Positions 4,030-30,500 of a stretch of DNA of 30,722 nt are shown here, piece after piece; the stretch's first letter is position 1, and every line of letters starts with the position of its first letter. The notes under the pieces were generated by a model that ran no database searches, had not been told where the DNA came from, and was given only the letters and a program-made list of their open reading frames with translations. Origin of the DNA: a virus; the UHGV virus genome UHGV-0024034. The stretch is one strand, 5' to 3'. Position numbers and translations under genes: made by a program.

Positions 4030-4257
4030 ATGCGTAATACCGAAATCCGTAGTTTTAACACTGATAGCGATGCGCTGGCCGTATTGCTGACCGATGCAAA
4101 AAAAGAAGAGCGTAAAGACCGCGCGCTCGCTGTTTCCATCCGCCTTGAGGCGCTGGCTATTCATATTACCAGAGAGGGTATGAGCGGCACCGAAGCTGCC
4201 GAACTGCTGCGCCGTGAAGCAACCCGCTTTGAGAATGAATCACAGGAGCTGCACTAA
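4030..4257 (+). CDS. Hypothetical early protein
   Basis: 75-aa ORF with AGGAG RBS; its stop overlaps the start of the next gene. Confidence 0.5.
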   Translation: MRNTEIRSFNTDSDALAVLLTDAKKEERKDRALAVSIRLEALAIHITREGMSGTEAAELLRREATRFENESQELH

Positions 4258-4478
4258 TGGCCGACGCAATGGATTTAGCACAACTGCGCGAGCAGGAAGA
4301 CCGCGAACGCCACATCAGCAACGCACGCACCCGTATCGCTGCACCTTCCCGTTTTCTTTGCGAGGAATGTGACACACCAATCCCGGAAGCTCGCCGCATT
4401 GCGATTCCGGGCGTGGCTTTTTGCGTAACCTGCCAGCAAATAGCAGAGCTAAAAAACAAACACTATCGGGGGGTATAA
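4257..4478 (+). CDS. TraR/DksA-family C4 zinc-finger protein
   Basis: 73 aa with CxxC-(17)-CxxC (CEECDTPIPEARRIAIPGVAFCVTC), the pattern found just upstream of gene A in P2-like phages. Confidence 0.7.
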   Translation: MADAMDLAQLREQEDRERHISNARTRIAAPSRFLCEECDTPIPEARRIAIPGVAFCVTCQQIAELKNKHYRGV

Positions 4479-4479
4479 A

Positions 4480-6702
4480 TTGGCTGTTCAATTCGCTTAT
4501 CCGTGGAACGTCCCACGGTCGGCAATCTCCAGCCCATACCTTACTTATGAGCAACAGCATCGCCGCGACCGTATGTTCGCGGCTTTGCTGCATGCAAAAA
4601 AGGTGCTTTCTCTCCAGCCCGACTGCGTGCGGTTAGATGTTTATCGCACTGCTGCGGTGCTGGAGCAAAATCAGGGTAGTCAACGAGCCAATGCATTTTT
4701 AATCAGCTTCTGCAAAAAGGCATTGCCGCGTCTTGAACTGGTCGCAAAAAAATACGAATGCGCTGGTATCAACAGCAAGGTATCAACCGCTGTTTTTGGA
4801 AGTCATTTTGATACTCAGCAAATGCAATATCTGTCGTCACGCATGGTTAATATGGTCGCCCAATATAACCGTCTCCCGGACATGTCGCGCGCTGATGTTG
4901 ACCTGTTGGCCGCTGATATTGCTAATTTCATTCGTGGTGAACTTGCCAACATTAATGACCACGGATTCGGCGAGCTTAAAACGCTGTACACCTGGTATAT
5001 TCGTGCTGGCTTTATTTCCCTCCAATTCAACGTTATCCCACCACATTGGGAGCGGGTTGAAAAAAAATATGTCGGTGCGGATGAAATCGCACCGGCTATC
5101 GCCAAAATGTTTAACGATGGGTGGTGGCGCGGTCGTTTGCGCCGTGTTGCAGCTACGTGGCGCGAACACCTGCAAATTGCAGTCGGCAACGTCAGTAAGA
5201 AAAAAAACACTTACGCGAGTAAAAACTGCGTGACTGACTGGCGTGAACAAAAGCGCCGCACTCGTGAATTTCTCAAAGGTCTGGATCTCGAAGACGAAGA
5301 CGGCAACCGTATCAGCCTAATTGAAAAATATGATGGCTCAGTTGCTAACCCTGCGATTCGCCGCTGTGAGCTCATGACCCGCATTCGTGGGTTTGAAAAC
5401 ATCTGTAATGAGCTCGGTTATGTCGGTGAGTTTTACACTCTAACCGCGCCGTCAAAATATCACGCCACGACTAAAGCCGGTTACCGTAACAGCAAATGGA
5501 GCGGTGCCAGCCCGGCTGACACGCAAAACTATCTAACCGGTATCTGGGCGCGTATCCGTGCCAAACTACATCGGGAAGATGTCCGTATTTTCGGTATTCG
5601 TGTCGCCGAGCCCCATCACGACGGCACTCCACACTGGCACATGCTGATGTTCATGCTGCCGGAAGATGTTGAATATGTTCGCTCCATCGTCCGTAAATAC
5701 GCATGGAAAGAAGACCGCCACGAACTGAAAAGCGATAAATCCAAAAAAGCACGTTTCCACGCCGAGTCCATTGACCCGGAGAAAGGCAGCGCAACCGGCT
5801 ATGTTGCTAAATACATTTCAAAAAATATCGACGGTTATGCTCTCGATGGTGAAACCGATGATGAAAGCGGTGAGCTGCTGAAAGAGACAGCCCCCGCCGT
5901 TTCAGCATGGGCTGCGCGCTGGCACATCCGTCAGTTTCAGTTTATTGGTGGTGCGCCGGTGACGGTTTACCGTGAGTTGCGTCGCCTCGCTGATACCGAA
6001 ACCGCGCACGGTCTGAGCGTTGAGTTTGCCGCCGTCCATGATGCCGCCGACGCTGGTGACTGGGCTGGTTATGTTAATGCTCAGGGTGGGCCGTTTGTCC
6101 GTCGCGATGATTTACAGGTGCGCACACTGTATGAACCGCGCACCGAGCTTAATCAGTACGGTGAGGAAACGGTATGTATTAAGGGGGTCTACGATTCCTC
6201 CATAGGTGCAGGAAGCCCGATTTTAACCCGGCTCACTCAGTGGAAGATTGTTCCGAAGCGTGCTGTTGATTTGGCCGTTGACCTTCAGGACGGCAAAGCC
6301 GTCCCTCGGAGTTCTGTCAATAACTGTACGGGAAGCGAAAGCGATCCACCGATACTGGATTTAACAAAACCACTGAGTCGGCGTGAAAGACGAGAATTGA
6401 CCAACCGACTCAGGAAGCAAAAGCCAGCAGCACGGCGAAAATTCATCCACGGAACGGATGAGCAAAACGCAGCTATAGCTAAAACTATCGATGAGATACA
6501 TCTGACAACCGGCATTAATATCAGCCGGGGCGAAGCCCTGCACCTGATGGCCGGTGGTAAAAGTTGTTTTGATGGTAAATGGCTACGCGGAACGGCCAAA
6601 GGAGAAATATTTTCCGCAGCACCATCGCATGAGGCTAAAGCTCGGAAAATCCTTAATCGTGTTGCGGCGATGGCTGAAGCATCAAAACCAATACATGAGT
6701 AA
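4480..6702 (+). CDS. A: Replication initiation endonuclease gpA (rolling-circle initiator)
   Basis: 740 aa; conserved EPHHDGTPHWHMLMF and GYVAKYISKNIDGYALDG motifs; N-terminus aligns with P2 gpA; apparent TTG start with a G-rich RBS. Confidence 0.95.
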   Translation: MAVQFAYPWNVPRSAISSPYLTYEQQHRRDRMFAALLHAKKVLSLQPDCVRLDVYRTAAVLEQNQGSQRANAFLISFCKKALPRLELVAKKYECAGINSKVSTAVFGSHFDTQQMQYLSSRMVNMVAQYNRLPDMSRADVDLLAADIANFIRGELANINDHGFGELKTLYTWYIRAGFISLQFNVIPPHWERVEKKYVGADEIAPAIAKMFNDGWWRGRLRRVAATWREHLQIAVGNVSKKKNTYASKNCVTDWREQKRRTREFLKGLDLEDEDGNRISLIEKYDGSVANPAIRRCELMTRIRGFENICNELGYVGEFYTLTAPSKYHATTKAGYRNSKWSGASPADTQNYLTGIWARIRAKLHREDVRIFGIRVAEPHHDGTPHWHMLMFMLPEDVEYVRSIVRKYAWKEDRHELKSDKSKKARFHAESIDPEKGSATGYVAKYISKNIDGYALDGETDDESGELLKETAPAVSAWAARWHIRQFQFIGGAPVTVYRELRRLADTETAHGLSVEFAAVHDAADAGDWAGYVNAQGGPFVRRDDLQVRTLYEPRTELNQYGEETVCIKGVYDSSIGAGSPILTRLTQWKIVPKRAVDLAVDLQDGKAVPRSSVNNCTGSESDPPILDLTKPLSRRERRELTNRLRKQKPAARRKFIHGTDEQNAAIAKTIDEIHLTTGINISRGEALHLMAGGKSCFDGKWLRGTAKGEIFSAAPSHEAKARKILNRVAAMAEASKPIHE

Positions 6703-6776
6703 TTCATATCCATATCATGCACATACAGCAATCGCTCTATTCGTTTTTTTTCTTCCCATCTTTTGCCAATACGTGC

Positions 6777-6796
6777 TACTGTATAAATATACAGTA
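6777..6796. promoter_or_regulatory. LexA box (SOS operator) TACTGTATAAATATACAGTA
   Basis: Perfect CTGT-N8-ACAG palindrome with an AT-rich core; -35-like TTGCCA at 6763..6768; about 20 bp upstream of the ORF at 6816. Confidence 0.8.
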
Positions 6797-6815
6797 ACCC
6801 TGTGGGAGGGATTTC

Positions 6816-6998
6816 ATGGTTGGCGAACATTTCAGCCGAACGCAGCAAAAGTGGGCTTGTGTGCAATTTATTGCCGAGGTATCTCTGATTGCAAACTGCA
6901 AGCCATCAGACTTAAAGCTCGCGCTCACTCTCATTGCAGACCTAGCAAACAGCGAAAATAACGAAACCGAAGATGATAATTTTTATAAGGCTGATTAG
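6816..6998 (+). CDS. Small protein in LexA-controlled operon; candidate Tum-like antirepressor N-terminal part
   Basis: 60-aa ORF with GGGAGGG RBS directly downstream of the LexA box; function inferred from context only. Confidence 0.45.
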   Translation: MVGEHFSRTQQKWACVQFIAEVSLIANCKPSDLKLALTLIADLANSENNETEDDNFYKAD

Positions 6999-7001
6999 AT
7001 T

Positions 7002-7235
7002 ATGAGAATCAATATCACGTTGGATAAAGAGCAAAAAATTAGTCAGGCAACATTGGATGCACTTGAGGCTGAACTGTACCGCAATCTTCAACCTATTTAC
7101 CCAAAGACTGCTATCCGAATTCGCAAGGGCTCCGCTAATGGCGTTGAACTAAGCGGTTTGAAACTGGACGAAGATAAAAAACGAGTAATGGAAATCATGC
7201 AGCAGGTATGGGAGGACGATAGCTGGCTGCATTAA
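7002..7235 (+). CDS. DinI-family protein
   Basis: 77 aa, MRINITLDK...LDALEAELYRNLQ...EIMQQVWEDDSWLH; same length and pattern as E. coli DinI as I recall it (MRI.V...DAL..EL.R...I.Q..WE..D.W). Confidence 0.75.
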   Translation: MRINITLDKEQKISQATLDALEAELYRNLQPIYPKTAIRIRKGSANGVELSGLKLDEDKKRVMEIMQQVWEDDSWLH

Positions 7236-7237
7236 CA

Positions 7238-7306
7238 AACGCCGCCGGTGCTGAAACTTGCTTTCAGTGCTGGCGGGGTTGAACAACTCGCACCGCGAGG
7301 CGCTAG
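7238..7306 (+). repeat. Hairpin-containing 69-bp repeat, copy 1 (15-bp stem 7242..7256 / 7262..7276)
   Basis: Direct repeat of 7643..7711 with about 9 mismatches; imperfect inverted repeat forms a stem with G-U pairs on the plus-strand RNA only; begins immediately after the stop codon of the DinI-like ORF. Confidence 0.6.
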
Positions 7307-7430
7307 TTCTTCCTCTCAAAGTTTCTCGATGTTTTATTGGTTACACACCAGTGATGAATGGGACGTTACCTTAGCGGGTTTTATAGTGGCGCTGTGGCAG
7401 CGCTAAATAAAATTCATTGAGGGCGATAAT

Positions 7431-7640
7431 ATGCATCGACTACCGGGCGAAATTCCGCAGCACAAAACTAAAAGCATCAAACTGATGGCCATCGTTCATC
7501 GTCTGCAGCAGATAATGGTCAATGAGAATTTGACACCCGCCGAGCTGGTCGGGTGTGCCGAAATAGTCAGGGATAATTACGGCAAGCTGGATAGCATCAG
7601 CAAGCCGACACATTACTCACCGCCACCACGTCGACCATAG
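7431..7640 (+). CDS. Hypothetical protein
   Basis: 69-aa ORF with GAGGG RBS, flanked on both sides by the hairpin repeats. Confidence 0.4.
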   Translation: MHRLPGEIPQHKTKSIKLMAIVHRLQQIMVNENLTPAELVGCAEIVRDNYGKLDSISKPTHYSPPPRRP

Positions 7641-7642
7641 AT

Positions 7643-7711
7643 AACGCCGCCGGAGCTGAAACTCGCTTTCAGGTCTGGCGGGGTTGAACAACGAGCTACG
7701 CGAGGCGTTAG
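7643..7711 (+). repeat. Hairpin-containing 69-bp repeat, copy 2 (stem 7647..7661 / 7667..7681)
   Basis: See copy 1; begins immediately after the stop codon of the ORF at 7431..7640. Confidence 0.6.
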
Positions 7712-7773
7712 CCGGTCATAGCGTCGCAAATACTTCAACCGTCTGCTGGTTAAATAATTCGAGGTTTTTGGAC

Positions 7774-7968
7774 ATGCAAAATCCCCTTTCATCGAAAAAT
7801 GACCCGTTTGCCGATTGGGCAAAGAATCTGACTTTAATGGCTTTAAATAACGACCTGAGCTCTCGCGAGGTGGAAAGCTACACCGCAAAAATGGTCGAGC
7901 AGGCCGGTAAAGATGAGCTATCAGTCGTTATCAAACACCTGTTAAATCACATCAGAATGCGCAAATAA
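7774..7968 (+). CDS. Hypothetical protein
   Basis: 64-aa ORF from an internal Met of the ORF-track entry 7684..7968, whose N-terminal part lies inside repeat copy 2; weak RBS. Confidence 0.35.
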   Translation: MQNPLSSKNDPFADWAKNLTLMALNNDLSSREVESYTAKMVEQAGKDELSVVIKHLLNHIRMRK

Positions 7969-7984
7969 GAGGAACTATATAAAT

Positions 7985-8086
7985 ATGTTATCTCTCGTTT
8001 ATGAAAATCCGTGGACGACGATTTTTCTGATGATTTTTGCCAGCATGTGCCTCAACAGTGTTATTGGCGCATTGCGCGGCCATTAA
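7985..8086 (+). CDS. 33-aa hydrophobic peptide (candidate small membrane protein)
   Basis: MLSLVYENPWTTIFLMIFASMCLNSVIGALRGH; AAGAGG RBS about 11 nt upstream; followed by a strong terminator. Below the 60-aa cut-off of the ORF track. Confidence 0.3.
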   Translation: MLSLVYENPWTTIFLMIFASMCLNSVIGALRGH

Positions 8087-8104
8087 TCGCGACAAAACCA
8101 GACT

Positions 8105-8134
8105 AAAACCGGCACCCTGAATGCCGGTTTTTTT
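8105..8134 (+). terminator. Rho-independent terminator
   Basis: Stem ACCGGCA/TGCCGGT (8108..8114 / 8122..8128), 7-nt loop, then a run of seven T; preceded by an A-run, so possibly bidirectional. Confidence 0.7.
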
Positions 8135-8294
8135 ATGCCATTTTTCCGCGAATTTCCCGTTTTTTAGTCGTGCATGCATTAGGTGCATGGTTTTGCATGC
8201 GTCAGTCTTGCCCGTTCTGTCCGTGCGCCGCCAGAGCTAGCGCGGATCCAGAGTTGTCATGCAACTGCATTAAAACCGCCCCATAAAGCGGGCA

Positions 8295-8313
8295 GGCGTG
8301 GCGGGGAAAGCAT
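8295..8313 (+). other. cos: cos site, 19-nt cohesive-end sequence GGCGTGGCGGGGAAAGCAT
   Basis: Exact match to the 186 cohesive end as I recall it (P2 differs at two positions); lies between the replication side and the packaging genes, as expected in a P2-type prophage. Confidence 0.7.
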
Positions 8314-8532
8314 TGCGCGCCAGCAGTGATGCATAATAATAAAAATTATCCTCTGAGCGCGTCGTGATGGCGCTGTCGTGGTCGCTGCTGGTTCGTTGGT
8401 GGTCGAGTGTGTTCGTGCGCGTGAGACGCATCTGATGCGTGATGGTGGTGTGCATGGAAAAGCCACCAGGAGCAGCGGCTTTACAGGAGTGGCAGGATTC
8501 AAACTGCTAATTATGTTTCTACTATGATTAAA

Positions 8533-9537
8533 CTAATTTACATGTATGTAGAGTTCACCGTCGCCAGACCAATCGGGACACTCTAAAACAAGCCCAAACT
8601 GCTTGAATATTTCATCAATGATTATTGTTATCTCCCGAAAATCACCAAAACCTGTAATGTGCTGGTCATTAAACTTCCCATAAAGATTCTGAAAAGCAAT
8701 GCCTAATTCTGATAATTGATATCTTATCTTTGAGTTGGATAGTGTAAGGGATAGCTTTGGATCGTATTCTTTAATATTGATGTTTAGAGAATGGACATAA
8801 CCCATCGCATAAGCATAAGAGTTGATGATTAGCCTGATACGTTTTTTTACTTCAAGATACATGTCATTCAGAGAAATATTACCGTACTTATAACCCCAGA
8901 TGAGTTTTTCAATCTCGTCAGATACTTCATTTACAACAGTGTCAAGATTCTCTAAAAATAAATCGATAGTTTCTTGAGGGGCAGACCCCGAAGACATGTA
9001 ATTAGCGAGATATTCAGACCATGCACGCGTGGCTGAGATAAGAAGCGCGCTACCATACTCGTTGACTGTAAAGTTTTGGGCTAAGCATGTTAGTAAGTTT
9101 TTTTCATGTACGTGCACTAATTCATGGTGAATGCGATGGATGACTGCGAGGTATCCTTCTTCTTTCAGTTTTAAGAAGCTACCATCATTGAAAAGCTCAA
9201 CAAAAAAATCAATCGATAGCACAAGGGTATATTCTTCACATAGCCCATCATTGCCAATTTTTGTTACTAACTGCCCGACGGCTGCGCCCTGTTTGCTATT
9301 GGTAAATGAACTAGGGGATTTGTGTTGGTAAGAGGATGTTACCTTTTGAAGAGCTTCACTGAAGTTATAGGAAACAATCACGCATTTTAATTTGGAGATA
9401 TCAAGATTGAGATTTTTTGTTAAAGCTCGGATAGCTTCTAGTGTGAAATTACCGATATTATTTGCTTCTTGCTCAGTAGCGAAACCTTCGAGGGTTATTT
9501 TAAAATCAGTTTCCAAAATATTAATCTCCGCGCCCAT
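8533..9537 (-). CDS. AT-rich orphan protein with HExxH motif; candidate anti-phage or abortive-infection effector
   Basis: 334-aa ORF, markedly AT-rich by eye relative to the GC-rich flanks; HELVHVHE at residues 138..145 (nt 9126..9103); no resemblance to P2/186 core proteins that I recognise; lies between cos and portal gene Q. Confidence 0.6.
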   Translation of the reverse strand: MGAEINILETDFKITLEGFATEQEANNIGNFTLEAIRALTKNLNLDISKLKCVIVSYNFSEALQKVTSSYQHKSPSSFTNSKQGAAVGQLVTKIGNDGLCEEYTLVLSIDFFVELFNDGSFLKLKEEGYLAVIHRIHHELVHVHEKNLLTCLAQNFTVNEYGSALLISATRAWSEYLANYMSSGSAPQETIDLFLENLDTVVNEVSDEIEKLIWGYKYGNISLNDMYLEVKKRIRLIINSYAYAMGYVHSLNINIKEYDPKLSLTLSNSKIRYQLSELGIAFQNLYGKFNDQHITGFGDFREITIIIDEIFKQFGLVLECPDWSGDGELYIHVN

Positions 9538-9614: not shown

Positions 9615-10661
9615 TTATTCTGGGTTGTCGAGGGTGTACTCTTTGAATCTGATGACCTCCATGCCGAGCCAGTCATTTACCTCCCTGAACCTGTCCTGTA
9701 GCGGCGACAGCTCGTTGCGCACAAATACCTTTGCCACCTTCTCAACATCACCGAGTGAACCGATATTCTCGGGCTTGCCGCCCATGAGCTGGAACGGTAC
9801 GCGGTGCGCGTCCATCAGATCGGCGGCACTGGCCTTCTTGATGTTGAAAAAGTCATCCTTTGTGGCGACCTCGCTCAGTGGCACGATTTTGATGCCGTCC
9901 GGTTTTCCGCCGGGAGCGTAGAAAAACAGGTTCTTAAAGTTGCCGAGCCCTTTTGAGTTGCGCATCGCCTCGCGCAGCGATTCGACGTCGGTCGCGCTCT
10001 GCGCCGGGTCAGTCACATACATGATGTAGCCTGCGTGCGCGCCGTTCTGATAATACTTGCGGCGGAACAGCGTCGCGGATTCATTCAGCCAAGCGGAATT
10101 AAGCGCGCTGAGATATTCCGGCAGACCGTAAATCTCCTGATTAATGTCGGGCTCCAGCAGGTGAAACACGGTATCAGGCGCGAACTCGTGCGGCTGGGTG
10201 AAGTTTTCCACAAACCAGAAAATCGAATCGTCGACTCCGCGTCGGGTGTATTTGGCTGGCGAGGCCAGCAGTTTGATTAACTGGCCGGTGACGCTGTGGC
10301 GCTGCTCAAGAAAGGCGTTACCGAACACCAGATAATCGAGCGCAAAGCGGCTGAAATCCTGACGGGATAACAACGGGTGCGGAATGTAGGTGCTCGCGAG
10401 CACGTTACGCTTAACATAAATTGGCGAGCTGTGATGCACGGCAGAGCGCAGGCTCTTTGCCAGCCCTGAGAAGCTGACCGGCGGCTCGTACCATTTGCCG
10501 TTACTGATGCACTCGACGTAATCCAGAATGTCGCGCTTATCGAGTACCGGCACCGGCTCGCCGAAGGTGAACGCTGTCGTTTTTGGCGGTGCGCTGGCGG
10601 TCAGTTGTTGTGGTTTGCTGGCCTTTTGTGCGTTGGCTTTACGGGATTTTTGTTTACCCAT
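9615..10661 (-). CDS. Q: Portal protein gpQ
   Basis: 348 aa; long conserved blocks shared with P2 gpQ (FTFGEPVPVLDRRDILDYVEC, LPEYLSALNSAWLNESATLFRRKYY, FFNIKKASAADL). Confidence 0.95.
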   Translation of the reverse strand: MGKQKSRKANAQKASKPQQLTASAPPKTTAFTFGEPVPVLDKRDILDYVECISNGKWYEPPVSFSGLAKSLRSAVHHSSPIYVKRNVLASTYIPHPLLSRQDFSRFALDYLVFGNAFLEQRHSVTGQLIKLLASPAKYTRRGVDDSIFWFVENFTQPHEFAPDTVFHLLEPDINQEIYGLPEYLSALNSAWLNESATLFRRKYYQNGAHAGYIMYVTDPAQSATDVESLREAMRNSKGLGNFKNLFFYAPGGKPDGIKIVPLSEVATKDDFFNIKKASAADLMDAHRVPFQLMGGKPENIGSLGDVEKVAKVFVRNELSPLQDRFREVNDWLGMEVIRFKEYTLDNPE

Positions 10662-30281: not shown

Positions 30282-30500
30282 ATGATGCACTGCCCGTTAT
30301 GCCAAAACGCCGCACATGCTCGCACTAGCCGGTACCTTAGCACCGAAACAAAAGAACGTTATCACCAGTGCCAGAACATAAATTGCGGATGTACATTTAT
30401 CACTTTTGAGACGCTATCAAGATTCATTGTGAAACCGGGTACTGTTGATCCTGCTCCGCCACACCCCATCAGAAACCAACAACAGCAACTTTGGCTTTGA
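30282..30500 (+). CDS. ogr: Late gene activator, Ogr/Delta (186 B) family zinc finger
   Basis: 72 aa from MMHCPLCQNAAHARTSRYLSTETKERYHQCQNINCGCTFITFETLSRFIVKPG, near-identical in pattern to P2 Ogr; the ORF-track start at 30237 is an overextension. Confidence 0.9.
   Translation: MMHCPLCQNAAHARTSRYLSTETKERYHQCQNINCGCTFITFETLSRFIVKPGTVDPAPPHPIRNQQQQLWL

Follow-up and report, generated by a model that had tools for sequence, protein, structure and literature searches.

Two direct repeats in the virus genome UHGV-0024034 (30,722 nt; this whole stretch is called the window below), at positions 7238-7306 (copy 1) and 7643-7711 (copy 2) of the plus strand, represent an element that we name E, apparently an undescribed cis-element of P2/186-type phages. 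The window represents a complete 186-like prophage of the Eganvirus type. E is composed of a hairpin and a nearly fixed tail. We found that the plus-strand single-stranded fold of the hairpin is under selection, that the tail is constrained at the nucleotide level, and that E marks the exact start of variable cargo, including defence genes, at a sharp junction. From these sequence comparisons we favour, with somewhat less than even confidence, the reading that E is an intercistronic or 3' untranslated region (3'-UTR) module acting at the level of messenger RNA (mRNA), which would set the fate of the upstream message and would incidentally anchor cargo exchange.

The plus-strand fold of E is under selection

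A direct-repeat search returned the two copies as 69-nt repeats, 87% identical and 405 nt apart, as the initial annotation of this DNA had described them. In both copies AAC is followed by an unpaired G, a 15-bp stem with a 5-nt loop (CUUGC in copy 1, CUCGC in copy 2), a second unpaired G and GTT, which is the imperfect inverted repeat reported there. The hairpins span 7238-7280 and 7643-7685, and the tails 7277-7306 and 7682-7711. AAC starts at 7238 and 7643, in both cases after a gap of 2 nt from the stop codon of the preceding open reading frame (ORF), in agreement with the stop-codon proximity noted earlier. The reported preference for the plus strand was reproduced by folding, which gave -39.4 and -37.8 kcal/mol (z -5.2 and -3.9) for copies 1 and 2 against -33.2 and -30.4 kcal/mol on the minus strand. 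The base changes between the copies were also as described: copy 1 has three G.U pairs, and in copy 2 one U-G is changed to A-U with the pair kept, while one G-U becomes a G.G mismatch. Neither copy is followed by a U-run; GAACAAC stands directly 3' of the stem, and a terminator scan called neither.

The initial annotation had proposed a covariance search across related prophages, and its outcome was that the fold is kept by compensatory change. The set of E comprised 246 members (163 unique) among the matches listed, after filtering, from phages, prophages and metagenomes, and an alignment of 96 members with mutual identity below 93% (A1) was the basis for helix scoring. The 43-nt hairpin forms a 19-position helix with one conserved internal mismatch, a G.G at helix position 4 in 100 of 123 members, and the loop is mostly CUNGN. 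In A1, 92.6% of the helix cells were paired, compared with 35-51% when the 3' partners were slid; double-change cells numbered 277 against 78±16 in shuffles, none of 500 shuffles reached 277, and compensatory changes were found in 13 of the 18 helix pairs. RNAalifold independently arrived at this stem and predicted no structure in the tail. The pairing persists even as the stem sequence drifts freely. In the fixed register, G.U/U.G occurred 225 times and A.C/C.A 32 times, and the mean minimum free energy of the 163 unique members was -25.1 kcal/mol on the plus strand and -17.6 kcal/mol on the minus strand, with the plus strand more stable in 142. Of the RNA-level element suggested by the initial annotation, the strand-specific structured element thus stands, on covariation across the family and on G.U outnumbering A.C by 7:1, while its attenuator variant, taken up below with the operon, is unsupported.

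Within the window, a 46-nt degenerate pattern matched these two sites only, with 0 matches expected by chance, and a covariance model likewise gave only two matches, both at the repeats. Rfam 15 gave zero matches over the whole window at gathering thresholds; between 6700 and 8300 at E<=10, the sole overlap was a chance-level minus-strand microRNA match of 19.5 bits against a threshold of 52.

The tail, the cargo junction and the E-orf69-E arrangement

Three points had escaped the initial annotation: the invariant 30-nt tail, the family-wide distribution and the sharp junction with variable cargo. The tail, about 30 nt long and 3' of the stem, has the layout GGTTGAACAAC-GAG(C)-NNN(N)-GCGAGGCGTTAG. 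The main search pattern fixed part of the tail in advance, and therefore loci were re-sampled by protein homology only, with DinI or with the product of orf69, the gene between the two window copies; the orf69 sample covered protein identities from 100% down to 68%. In these protein-anchored loci, the tail columns had mean pairwise identities of 0.9-0.99 save for a variable spot of 3-4 nt, compared with about 0.4-0.6 at orf69 third codon positions and 0.2-0.3 just past GTTAG. The conservation runs 26 nt past GTT and stops after GCGAGGCGTTAG. Rare diverged tails occur, such as GCGACGTGTTAG and GAAAGGTGTTAG, with no sign of paired changes. These results show that the tail is held at the nucleotide level, which implies a conserved, putative binding partner.

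The tail has two forms. Copy 2 carries GGTTGAACAACGAGCTACGCGAGGCGTTAG, the majority GAG type and the same as the family consensus, and copy 1 carries GGTTGAACAACTCGCACCGCGAGGCGCTAG, the minority TCG type, in which a local 5-bp CTCGC/GCGAG hairpin is possible. The GAG form (A-CGAG-C NNN GCGAG) holds a direct repeat of CGAG and was found in 149 of the 163 unique members, and the TCG form (A-CTCG-C NNN GCGAG), with a perfect 5-bp local hairpin, in 13. The two forms (7288-7300 in copy 1, 7693-7705 in copy 2) differ by an exact 4-nt inversion, which looks like a quasi-palindrome template-switch mutation. An alternative helix between 5' AACGCC and GGCGTT of the tail is possible in most members as read from the alignment, and is broken where helix position 4 is C.

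Several candidate functions of the tail were tried and rejected. If the tail is read as coding from its TTG, the reading frame stays open over a median of 21 codons, and over at least 60 codons in 4 of 42 downstream classes only. As a sigma-70 promoter, no site was called in 6650-8350, and TTGAAC in the tail is read without an acceptable -10 hexamer at 16-18 nt. A pseudoknot of loop CUNG with tail CGAG has no covariation behind it, since the loop varies (CUUGA, CUCGC, CUGGU, UUUAU) and the tail does not. A secondary nick site for gene A was suggested by CGCCTCG, which is present in both the reverse-complemented tail and the P2 ori; 186 carries the same tail but its ori lacks CGCCTCG, and the match was therefore taken as chance. 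The tail end GGCGTTAG (7700-7711 and in the family) agrees at 7 of 8 positions with what we take to be the RfaH-recruiting ops core GGCGGTAG; the mismatched base is presumably important for RfaH, the bases after the tail end are unconserved, and this post hoc resemblance is not claimed. Neither do we claim the similarly post hoc resemblances to what we take to be lambda boxA and a CRISPR repeat (29 nt, with a local stem only in the 8% of TCG-type tails).

Upstream of E, the ORFs belong to three unrelated families: among 194 contexts, 141 were DinI-like, 36 orf69/PSP3 gp37-like and 13 186 orf97-like. E stood after the DinI gene in all 79 loci picked by DinI homology, and after orf69 in 74 of the 80 loci picked by orf69 homology; for the six orf69 loci without an E match, three distinct downstream sequences were shown, all visibly degraded or deleted remnants. 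In one locus (L390), within the 90 nt behind the orf69 stop codon, an internal deletion has fused the beginning of the 5' arm with the tail end (CAAACCCCGCC joined to AGGCGTTAG), which suggests slippage between the GCC/GGC motifs that bracket E. The distance from stop codon to AAC was 2 nt in 111 of the 194 contexts and 1-4 nt in 149, and the 2-nt gap is common to the DinI and orf69 families (32 of 36 for orf69).

Downstream of E, 193 distinct contexts fell into at least 42 unrelated sequence classes, each beginning right after the tail. They include plus-strand ORFs that start 3-140 nt on, minus-strand ORFs that end 2-36 nt on, and the 186 terminator t95b. In the largest class (65 contexts, such as L026, L053 and L205), a conserved ORF of about 86-88 aa (...NYQVV(Y/F)...) starts 3-5 nt past the tail, and GAGG in the tail lies at Shine-Dalgarno distance from its start codon. 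In annotated E. coli prophages, the neighbours of E included a Dcm methyltransferase, a retron-type reverse transcriptase and a DUF3696 ATPase. The interval from gene A to the portal gene is a known defence hotspot of P2, with 1,650 gene arrangements in E. coli (PMC9122126). Rousset et al. (2022) make no mention of a hairpin or a conserved junction (PMC9122126). Our literature search did not find the tail sequence in print, an earlier remark in the older P2 literature being still conceivable.

The start of the largest downstream class bears on the idea that the tail serves as a platform for regulation, either of the cargo behind it or in trans, for example as an Hfq/small RNA site, a translation-initiation region or a 3'-UTR-derived RNA. 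The ORF start 3-5 nt past the tail in these 65 contexts and the GAGG at Shine-Dalgarno distance speak for it, as does the order of hairpin, single-stranded tail and terminator in 186, a layout like that of a small RNA. The sequence AACAACGA also resembles what we take to be the Hfq motif AAYAAYAA. However, across the family the next start codon is from 3 to more than 140 nt away and many neighbours lie on the other strand, most copies have no terminator after them, the prophage has no complementary target, and the TTG frame is not preferentially open, so that we regard this role as improbable.

Repeats of the form E-orf69-E were found in 17 distinct loci with spacings of 397-433 nt, about 404 nt, and the ORF-plus-hairpin cassette that had been suggested at first fits this pattern. 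The faint similarity claimed between the ORFs behind the two repeats (7431-7640 and 7774-7968) was not recovered, as BLASTP gave no alignment of them even at E<=100. Identity between the copies within a locus was 0.78, compared with 0.79 between copy 1 and copy 2 across loci, 0.91 among orthologous copy 2s and 0.77 among orthologous copy 1s. The within-locus identity is no higher than the cross-locus one, which indicates an old arrangement with no concerted evolution and no recent duplication, and both folds are kept in it. A recent local duplication, raised by the initial annotation as a reason to doubt the element, or a functionless chance inverted repeat might be read from two window copies that are 87% identical and only 405 nt apart. 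We rejected both, at virtually no residual credence, on the breadth of the family (246 copies among the matches listed, hundreds of contigs and many genera), on the covariation that backs the fold, and on the paralogous copies, which are no closer than copies of different loci.

The same observations raise the question of whether E acts at the DNA level, as a recombination module or cassette junction where homologous or site-specific recombination would insert, excise or swap ORF-plus-E units and cargo. The 3' edge is razor-sharp, with at least 42 unrelated downstream classes behind it; the same 3' element stands on three unrelated genes; and E lies at the left border of the gene A-portal hotspot, for which Rousset et al. 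postulate a homologous crossover that they did not identify (PMC9122126). The E-orf69-E repeats at about 404 nt are what is expected if a circular orf69+E unit integrated into a resident E, and such an integration would yield this arrangement. Against a dedicated module, homology exchange needs identity and not a fold, whereas the stem drifts with compensatory and strand-specific G.U pairs; no dedicated recombinase is associated with E; the core sites of integron attC are not present and conservation continues 26 nt beyond the GTT cut point; and no gene conversion was seen between copies within a locus. Recombination as the function proper of E therefore appears unlikely to us.

The SOS operon and the spread of E among P2-family prophages

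The initial annotation placed the repeats in an SOS-controlled accessory operon, and this proved to be so. A perfect LexA box, TACTGTATAAATATACAGTA (6777-6796, plus strand; CTGT-N8-ACAG), marks an SOS promoter that is the counterpart of 186 p95, which is annotated with a LexA binding site. The first gene of the operon is a tumA-like ORF of 60 aa (6816-6998, plus; phrog_1993 at 1e-31), whose PSP3 homologue is annotated tumA, and the second is a DinI/TumB gene of 77 aa (7002-7235, plus; Pfam DinI PF06183, E 7e-24) with its stop codon at 7233-7235. Copy 1 follows, then orf69 (7431-7640, plus; PSP3 gp37 family, function unknown, phrog_11386 at 2e-47) with its stop codon at 7638-7640, then copy 2, and then orf64 (7774-7968, plus; phrog_2454, function unknown), the first cargo ORF 3' of copy 2. 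The last ORF is the small hydrophobic orf33 (MLSLVYENPWTTIFLMIFASMCLNSVIGALRGH; 7985-8086, plus), which had no family match and might encode a membrane peptide or something like a type I toxin. The operon really ends at a canonical bidirectional terminator at about 8105-8136 (plus), homologous to 186 t95b ("p95 transcript terminator"). The operon is the equivalent of the 186 p95 operon and of the PSP3 tumA-tumB operon. In its promoter region, 6765-6790 with the LexA box, and just before orf33 at 7961-7986, a 26-nt direct repeat of 77% identity was seen; the latter copy lacks the CTGT...ACAG halves, and the repeat is probably chance.

Around the operon, the replication gene A lies at 4480-6702 (Pfam Phage_GPA, 2e-130), cos, as placed by its homology with the right end of the 186 record, at about 8295-8313, and the portal gene at 9615-10661, followed by the terminase gene. 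Between cos and the portal gene, on the minus strand, is a 334-aa ORF (8533-9537) that matched phrog_11743 (unknown function) at 3e-157 and gave no match with Pfam and PADLOC. Its place inside the gene A-to-portal hotspot makes it a candidate for accessory or defence cargo.

In 186, E lies at 30341-30412, unannotated, between the orf97 stop codon and t95b, and by that annotation it belongs to the operon transcript. The most abundant transcript of the 186-like prophage BTP5 was that of tum, and the authors suspect post-transcriptional control (PMC7067206). A further possible reading is that E is a partial terminator, an attenuator or a Rho-related insulator, which would curb transcription running on from the SOS or early operon into the cargo. 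Where 186 has the partial terminator t95a, after tum, the window has copy 1; the stem is strong and G+C-rich; and several classes have a convergent cargo gene whose end lies 2-36 nt past the tail with no other structure between. On the other side, the stem has no U-tract but, in nearly all members, GAACAAC after it, and the scan was negative; the 186 p95 transcript is annotated to end at t95b, beyond E; copy 1 stands within the operon, ahead of orf69; the tail, being G-rich, is not rut-like; and its invariance is left unexplained by termination. We consider a terminating or insulating function rather doubtful, and the attenuator of the initial annotation is unsupported on two of these counts, the missing U-tract and the annotated t95b terminator 24 nt beyond E.

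The 3'-tail-anchored scan found E on at least 120 contigs in IMG/VR and at least 120 in a metagenome collection. As in 186, E goes unannotated in several other phages: PSP3 carries it twice, and it is also present in SW9, SEN1, Wphi, Erwinia EtG, and Klebsiella and Yersinia phages; in Wphi the order is a frameshifted orf69 homologue, then E, then cargo. Genera with E include Escherichia, Salmonella, Klebsiella, Yersinia, Erwinia, Citrobacter, Enterobacter, Kluyvera, Trabulsiella and others, and a stricter pattern run on species representatives matched Citrobacter, Trabulsiella, Kluyvera, Erwinia, Symbiopectobacterium, Scandinavium, Enterobacter and Escherichia. Every recovered copy belongs to a P2/186-type prophage or a remnant of one, in the stretch from gene A to cos. 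A P2-type gene A was upstream on the same strand in 177 of the 184 copies with enough flank, and a portal or terminase gene was downstream on the opposite strand in 174 of 176; the seven copies without gene A upstream are degraded P2-like remnants or remnants interrupted by insertion sequences.

In the chromosomes of Trabulsiella odontotermitis and T. guamensis, we observed a remnant orf69 homologue with E, no gene A upstream and surrounding ORFs that are not phage-like by appearance; here E outlasts prophage decay. The IMG/VR contig 3300011853_000021 has two copies of E on opposite strands, apparently in two adjacent P2-like prophages, and a 406-aa ORF upstream of one of its DinI genes may be a transposase.

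In E. coli, 416 of 5426 genomes carried E, at a median of 1 and a maximum of 2 places per genome, and the contexts examined were all P2-family prophages, so the dispersed REP-like family that the initial annotation had considered does not hold. Complete E. coli genomes held 453 E places against about 2,150 P2-type and about 123 186-type gene A places, and about 80% of the P2-family prophages in E. coli lack E. No copy of E was found in P2 itself (NC_001895), where tin adjoins orf91, 38 nt past its stop codon (4100-4260). E is thus an accessory element, and its absence from P2 and most P2-type prophages points away from an essential role in replication or packaging.

This distribution also bears on the nature of the folded species. 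The hairpin could form in the displaced plus-strand single-stranded DNA (ssDNA) during rolling-circle replication from gene A, as a lagging-strand priming or helicase-loading signal: it is stable as ssDNA on the plus strand only, E lies downstream of the gene A ori in the same orientation (177 of 184), and it is confined to P2-family replicons. However, P2 and about 80% of the E. coli P2-family prophages do without E, which follows three accessory genes and their stop codons and not the replicon; some phages carry two copies 404 nt apart; and the likeness to the P2 ori nick site (CGCCTCG) is missing in 186 despite the same tail. A replication signal of this type is, in our estimate, very unlikely. 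We consider that the folded species is probably RNA and not displaced ssDNA, because G.U makes up about 10% of the pairs, E is tied to stop codons, it tracks the gene rather than the replicon, and it is absent from most P2-type phages.

Possible roles of E and its likeness to known elements

In the mRNA-level reading that we favour, E would be a unit of stop codon, 43-nt hairpin about 2 nt on, and near-fixed single-stranded tail of 30 nt, presumably co-transcribed with the accessory gene before it (DinI/TumB, orf69 or orf97). The hairpin would fold right behind the terminating ribosome and settle the fate of the upstream message, either as a barrier to 3' exonucleases or as a processing site, and the tail may be the place where a factor common to enterobacterial hosts binds or cleaves. 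Between them, hairpin and tail would uncouple the conserved upstream gene from the downstream cargo. As a by-product, about 70 nt of conserved junction DNA could provide a homology patch for swapping cargo, including defence genes, and the same patch could permit gain or loss of an ORF-plus-E unit. Tail types and hairpin types are mixed between lineages, a sign of exchange at E. We infer both the stabilising or processing role and the role in recombination.

A number of observations weigh against this reading. In 186 a canonical terminator hairpin follows 24 nt after E, so that a simple barrier to 3' exonucleases would be redundant there, and a plain stabiliser hairpin leaves the invariant 30-nt tail unexplained. 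A complementarity search for a partner of the tail in the prophage found only copies of E or chance-level matches. The gaps in the orf97 family are 4, 8 and 14 nt, and the 2-nt spacing thus rests on only two independent families. The window hairpins are also stable as plus-strand ssDNA (-16.6 and -18.3 kcal/mol), which together with the uniform orientation relative to the gene A ori makes a role at the DNA level possible.

A further reading, which we would put forward as an outside chance, is that E is a portable RNA/DNA cassette end: the hairpin and tail would be recognised by a host factor, with RNA polymerase, the ribosome, an RNase and Hfq as candidates, and the same 70 nt would be the site of capture and exchange of accessory and defence cargo in the gene A-to-cos hotspot.

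In behaviour E is like a stabiliser or processing hairpin (REP, T7 RNase III sites), and in evolution it is like a cassette border (T4 PeSL, attC). With REP/BIME it shares an imperfect strand-specific palindrome that is transcribed, placed just after stop codons and without a U-tract, for which a block to 3' exonucleases and differing cistron stabilities would be expected. REP/BIME, however, have tens to hundreds of copies dispersed in the chromosome, whereas E has 1-2 per genome, in P2-family prophages only; REPs lack the 30-nt invariant tail, and they share a consensus where the stem of E varies. RNase III sites such as the T7 early R sites (R1.1) and the lambda sib retroregulator are likewise phage-encoded stems, some 19-20 positions long with a single internal mismatch, that stand between cistrons or behind a regulated gene. 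By analogy, a putative RNase III cleavage at the stem of E would leave the upstream message protected by a 3' hairpin. The likeness that we claim is one of architecture, and E differs by its invariant tail and by standing behind three unrelated genes across genera.

Among cassette borders, the T4-type PeSL is a conserved stem-loop motif of 50-70 nt that recurs at the edges of variable ORFs within a hyperplastic region and is believed to drive modular shuffling by recombination between copies. E has no promoter (no sigma-70-like site in 6650-8350), lies 3' and not 5' of genes, and belongs to another phage family; unlike the PeSL, its stem is kept by compensatory change, which argues for a structural role beyond homology. 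Integron attC sites also have a hairpin directly 3' of an ORF, a strand-specific fold, an unpaired base and an AAC...GTT base, and GTTGAAC fits GTTRRRY. However, the bases before AAC in E are mostly purines (GCG, AGA, ACA, GAT) and not RYYYAAC, leaving only the AAC/GTT pair; the attC junction falls between G and TT, while conservation in E ends 26 nt later; and E has no integron integrase and occupies a single locus in one phage family. An attC-like site was therefore rejected, with only AAC/GTT and GTTGAAC fitting and the junction misplaced.

Known terminators and an antiterminator were compared as well. The 186 t95a stands where copy 1 does in the SOS operon, right behind the Tum/DinI coding region, but it is a canonical hairpin with a U-run and an unrelated sequence, and E in 186 sits after orf97. 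E has the G+C-rich hairpin of an intrinsic terminator but not its U-tract. HK022 put, a processive antiterminator RNA that makes RNA polymerase read through downstream terminators, consists of two stem-loops and E of one, and in 186 the t95b that follows 24 nt after E is annotated as ending the p95 transcript, which would speak against antitermination by E. E lacks a defining feature of each family tested, be it dispersal, U-tract, promoter, attC cores or a match in Rfam.

P2 and 186 are among the best-studied temperate phages, and E sits where their conserved sequence meets cargo. It offers a handle on how accessory genes are expressed or insulated once SOS is induced, a candidate crossover site at which cargo is exchanged, and a precise landmark for delimiting hotspot cargo in genome mining. 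If E is only a stabilising hairpin, it would be a tidy but modest addition to what is known of phage gene expression. If it is a cassette end, it would be a functional analogue of integron attC or the T4 PeSL, and it would be the missing left-hand crossover site postulated by Rousset et al. 2022 (PMC9122126).

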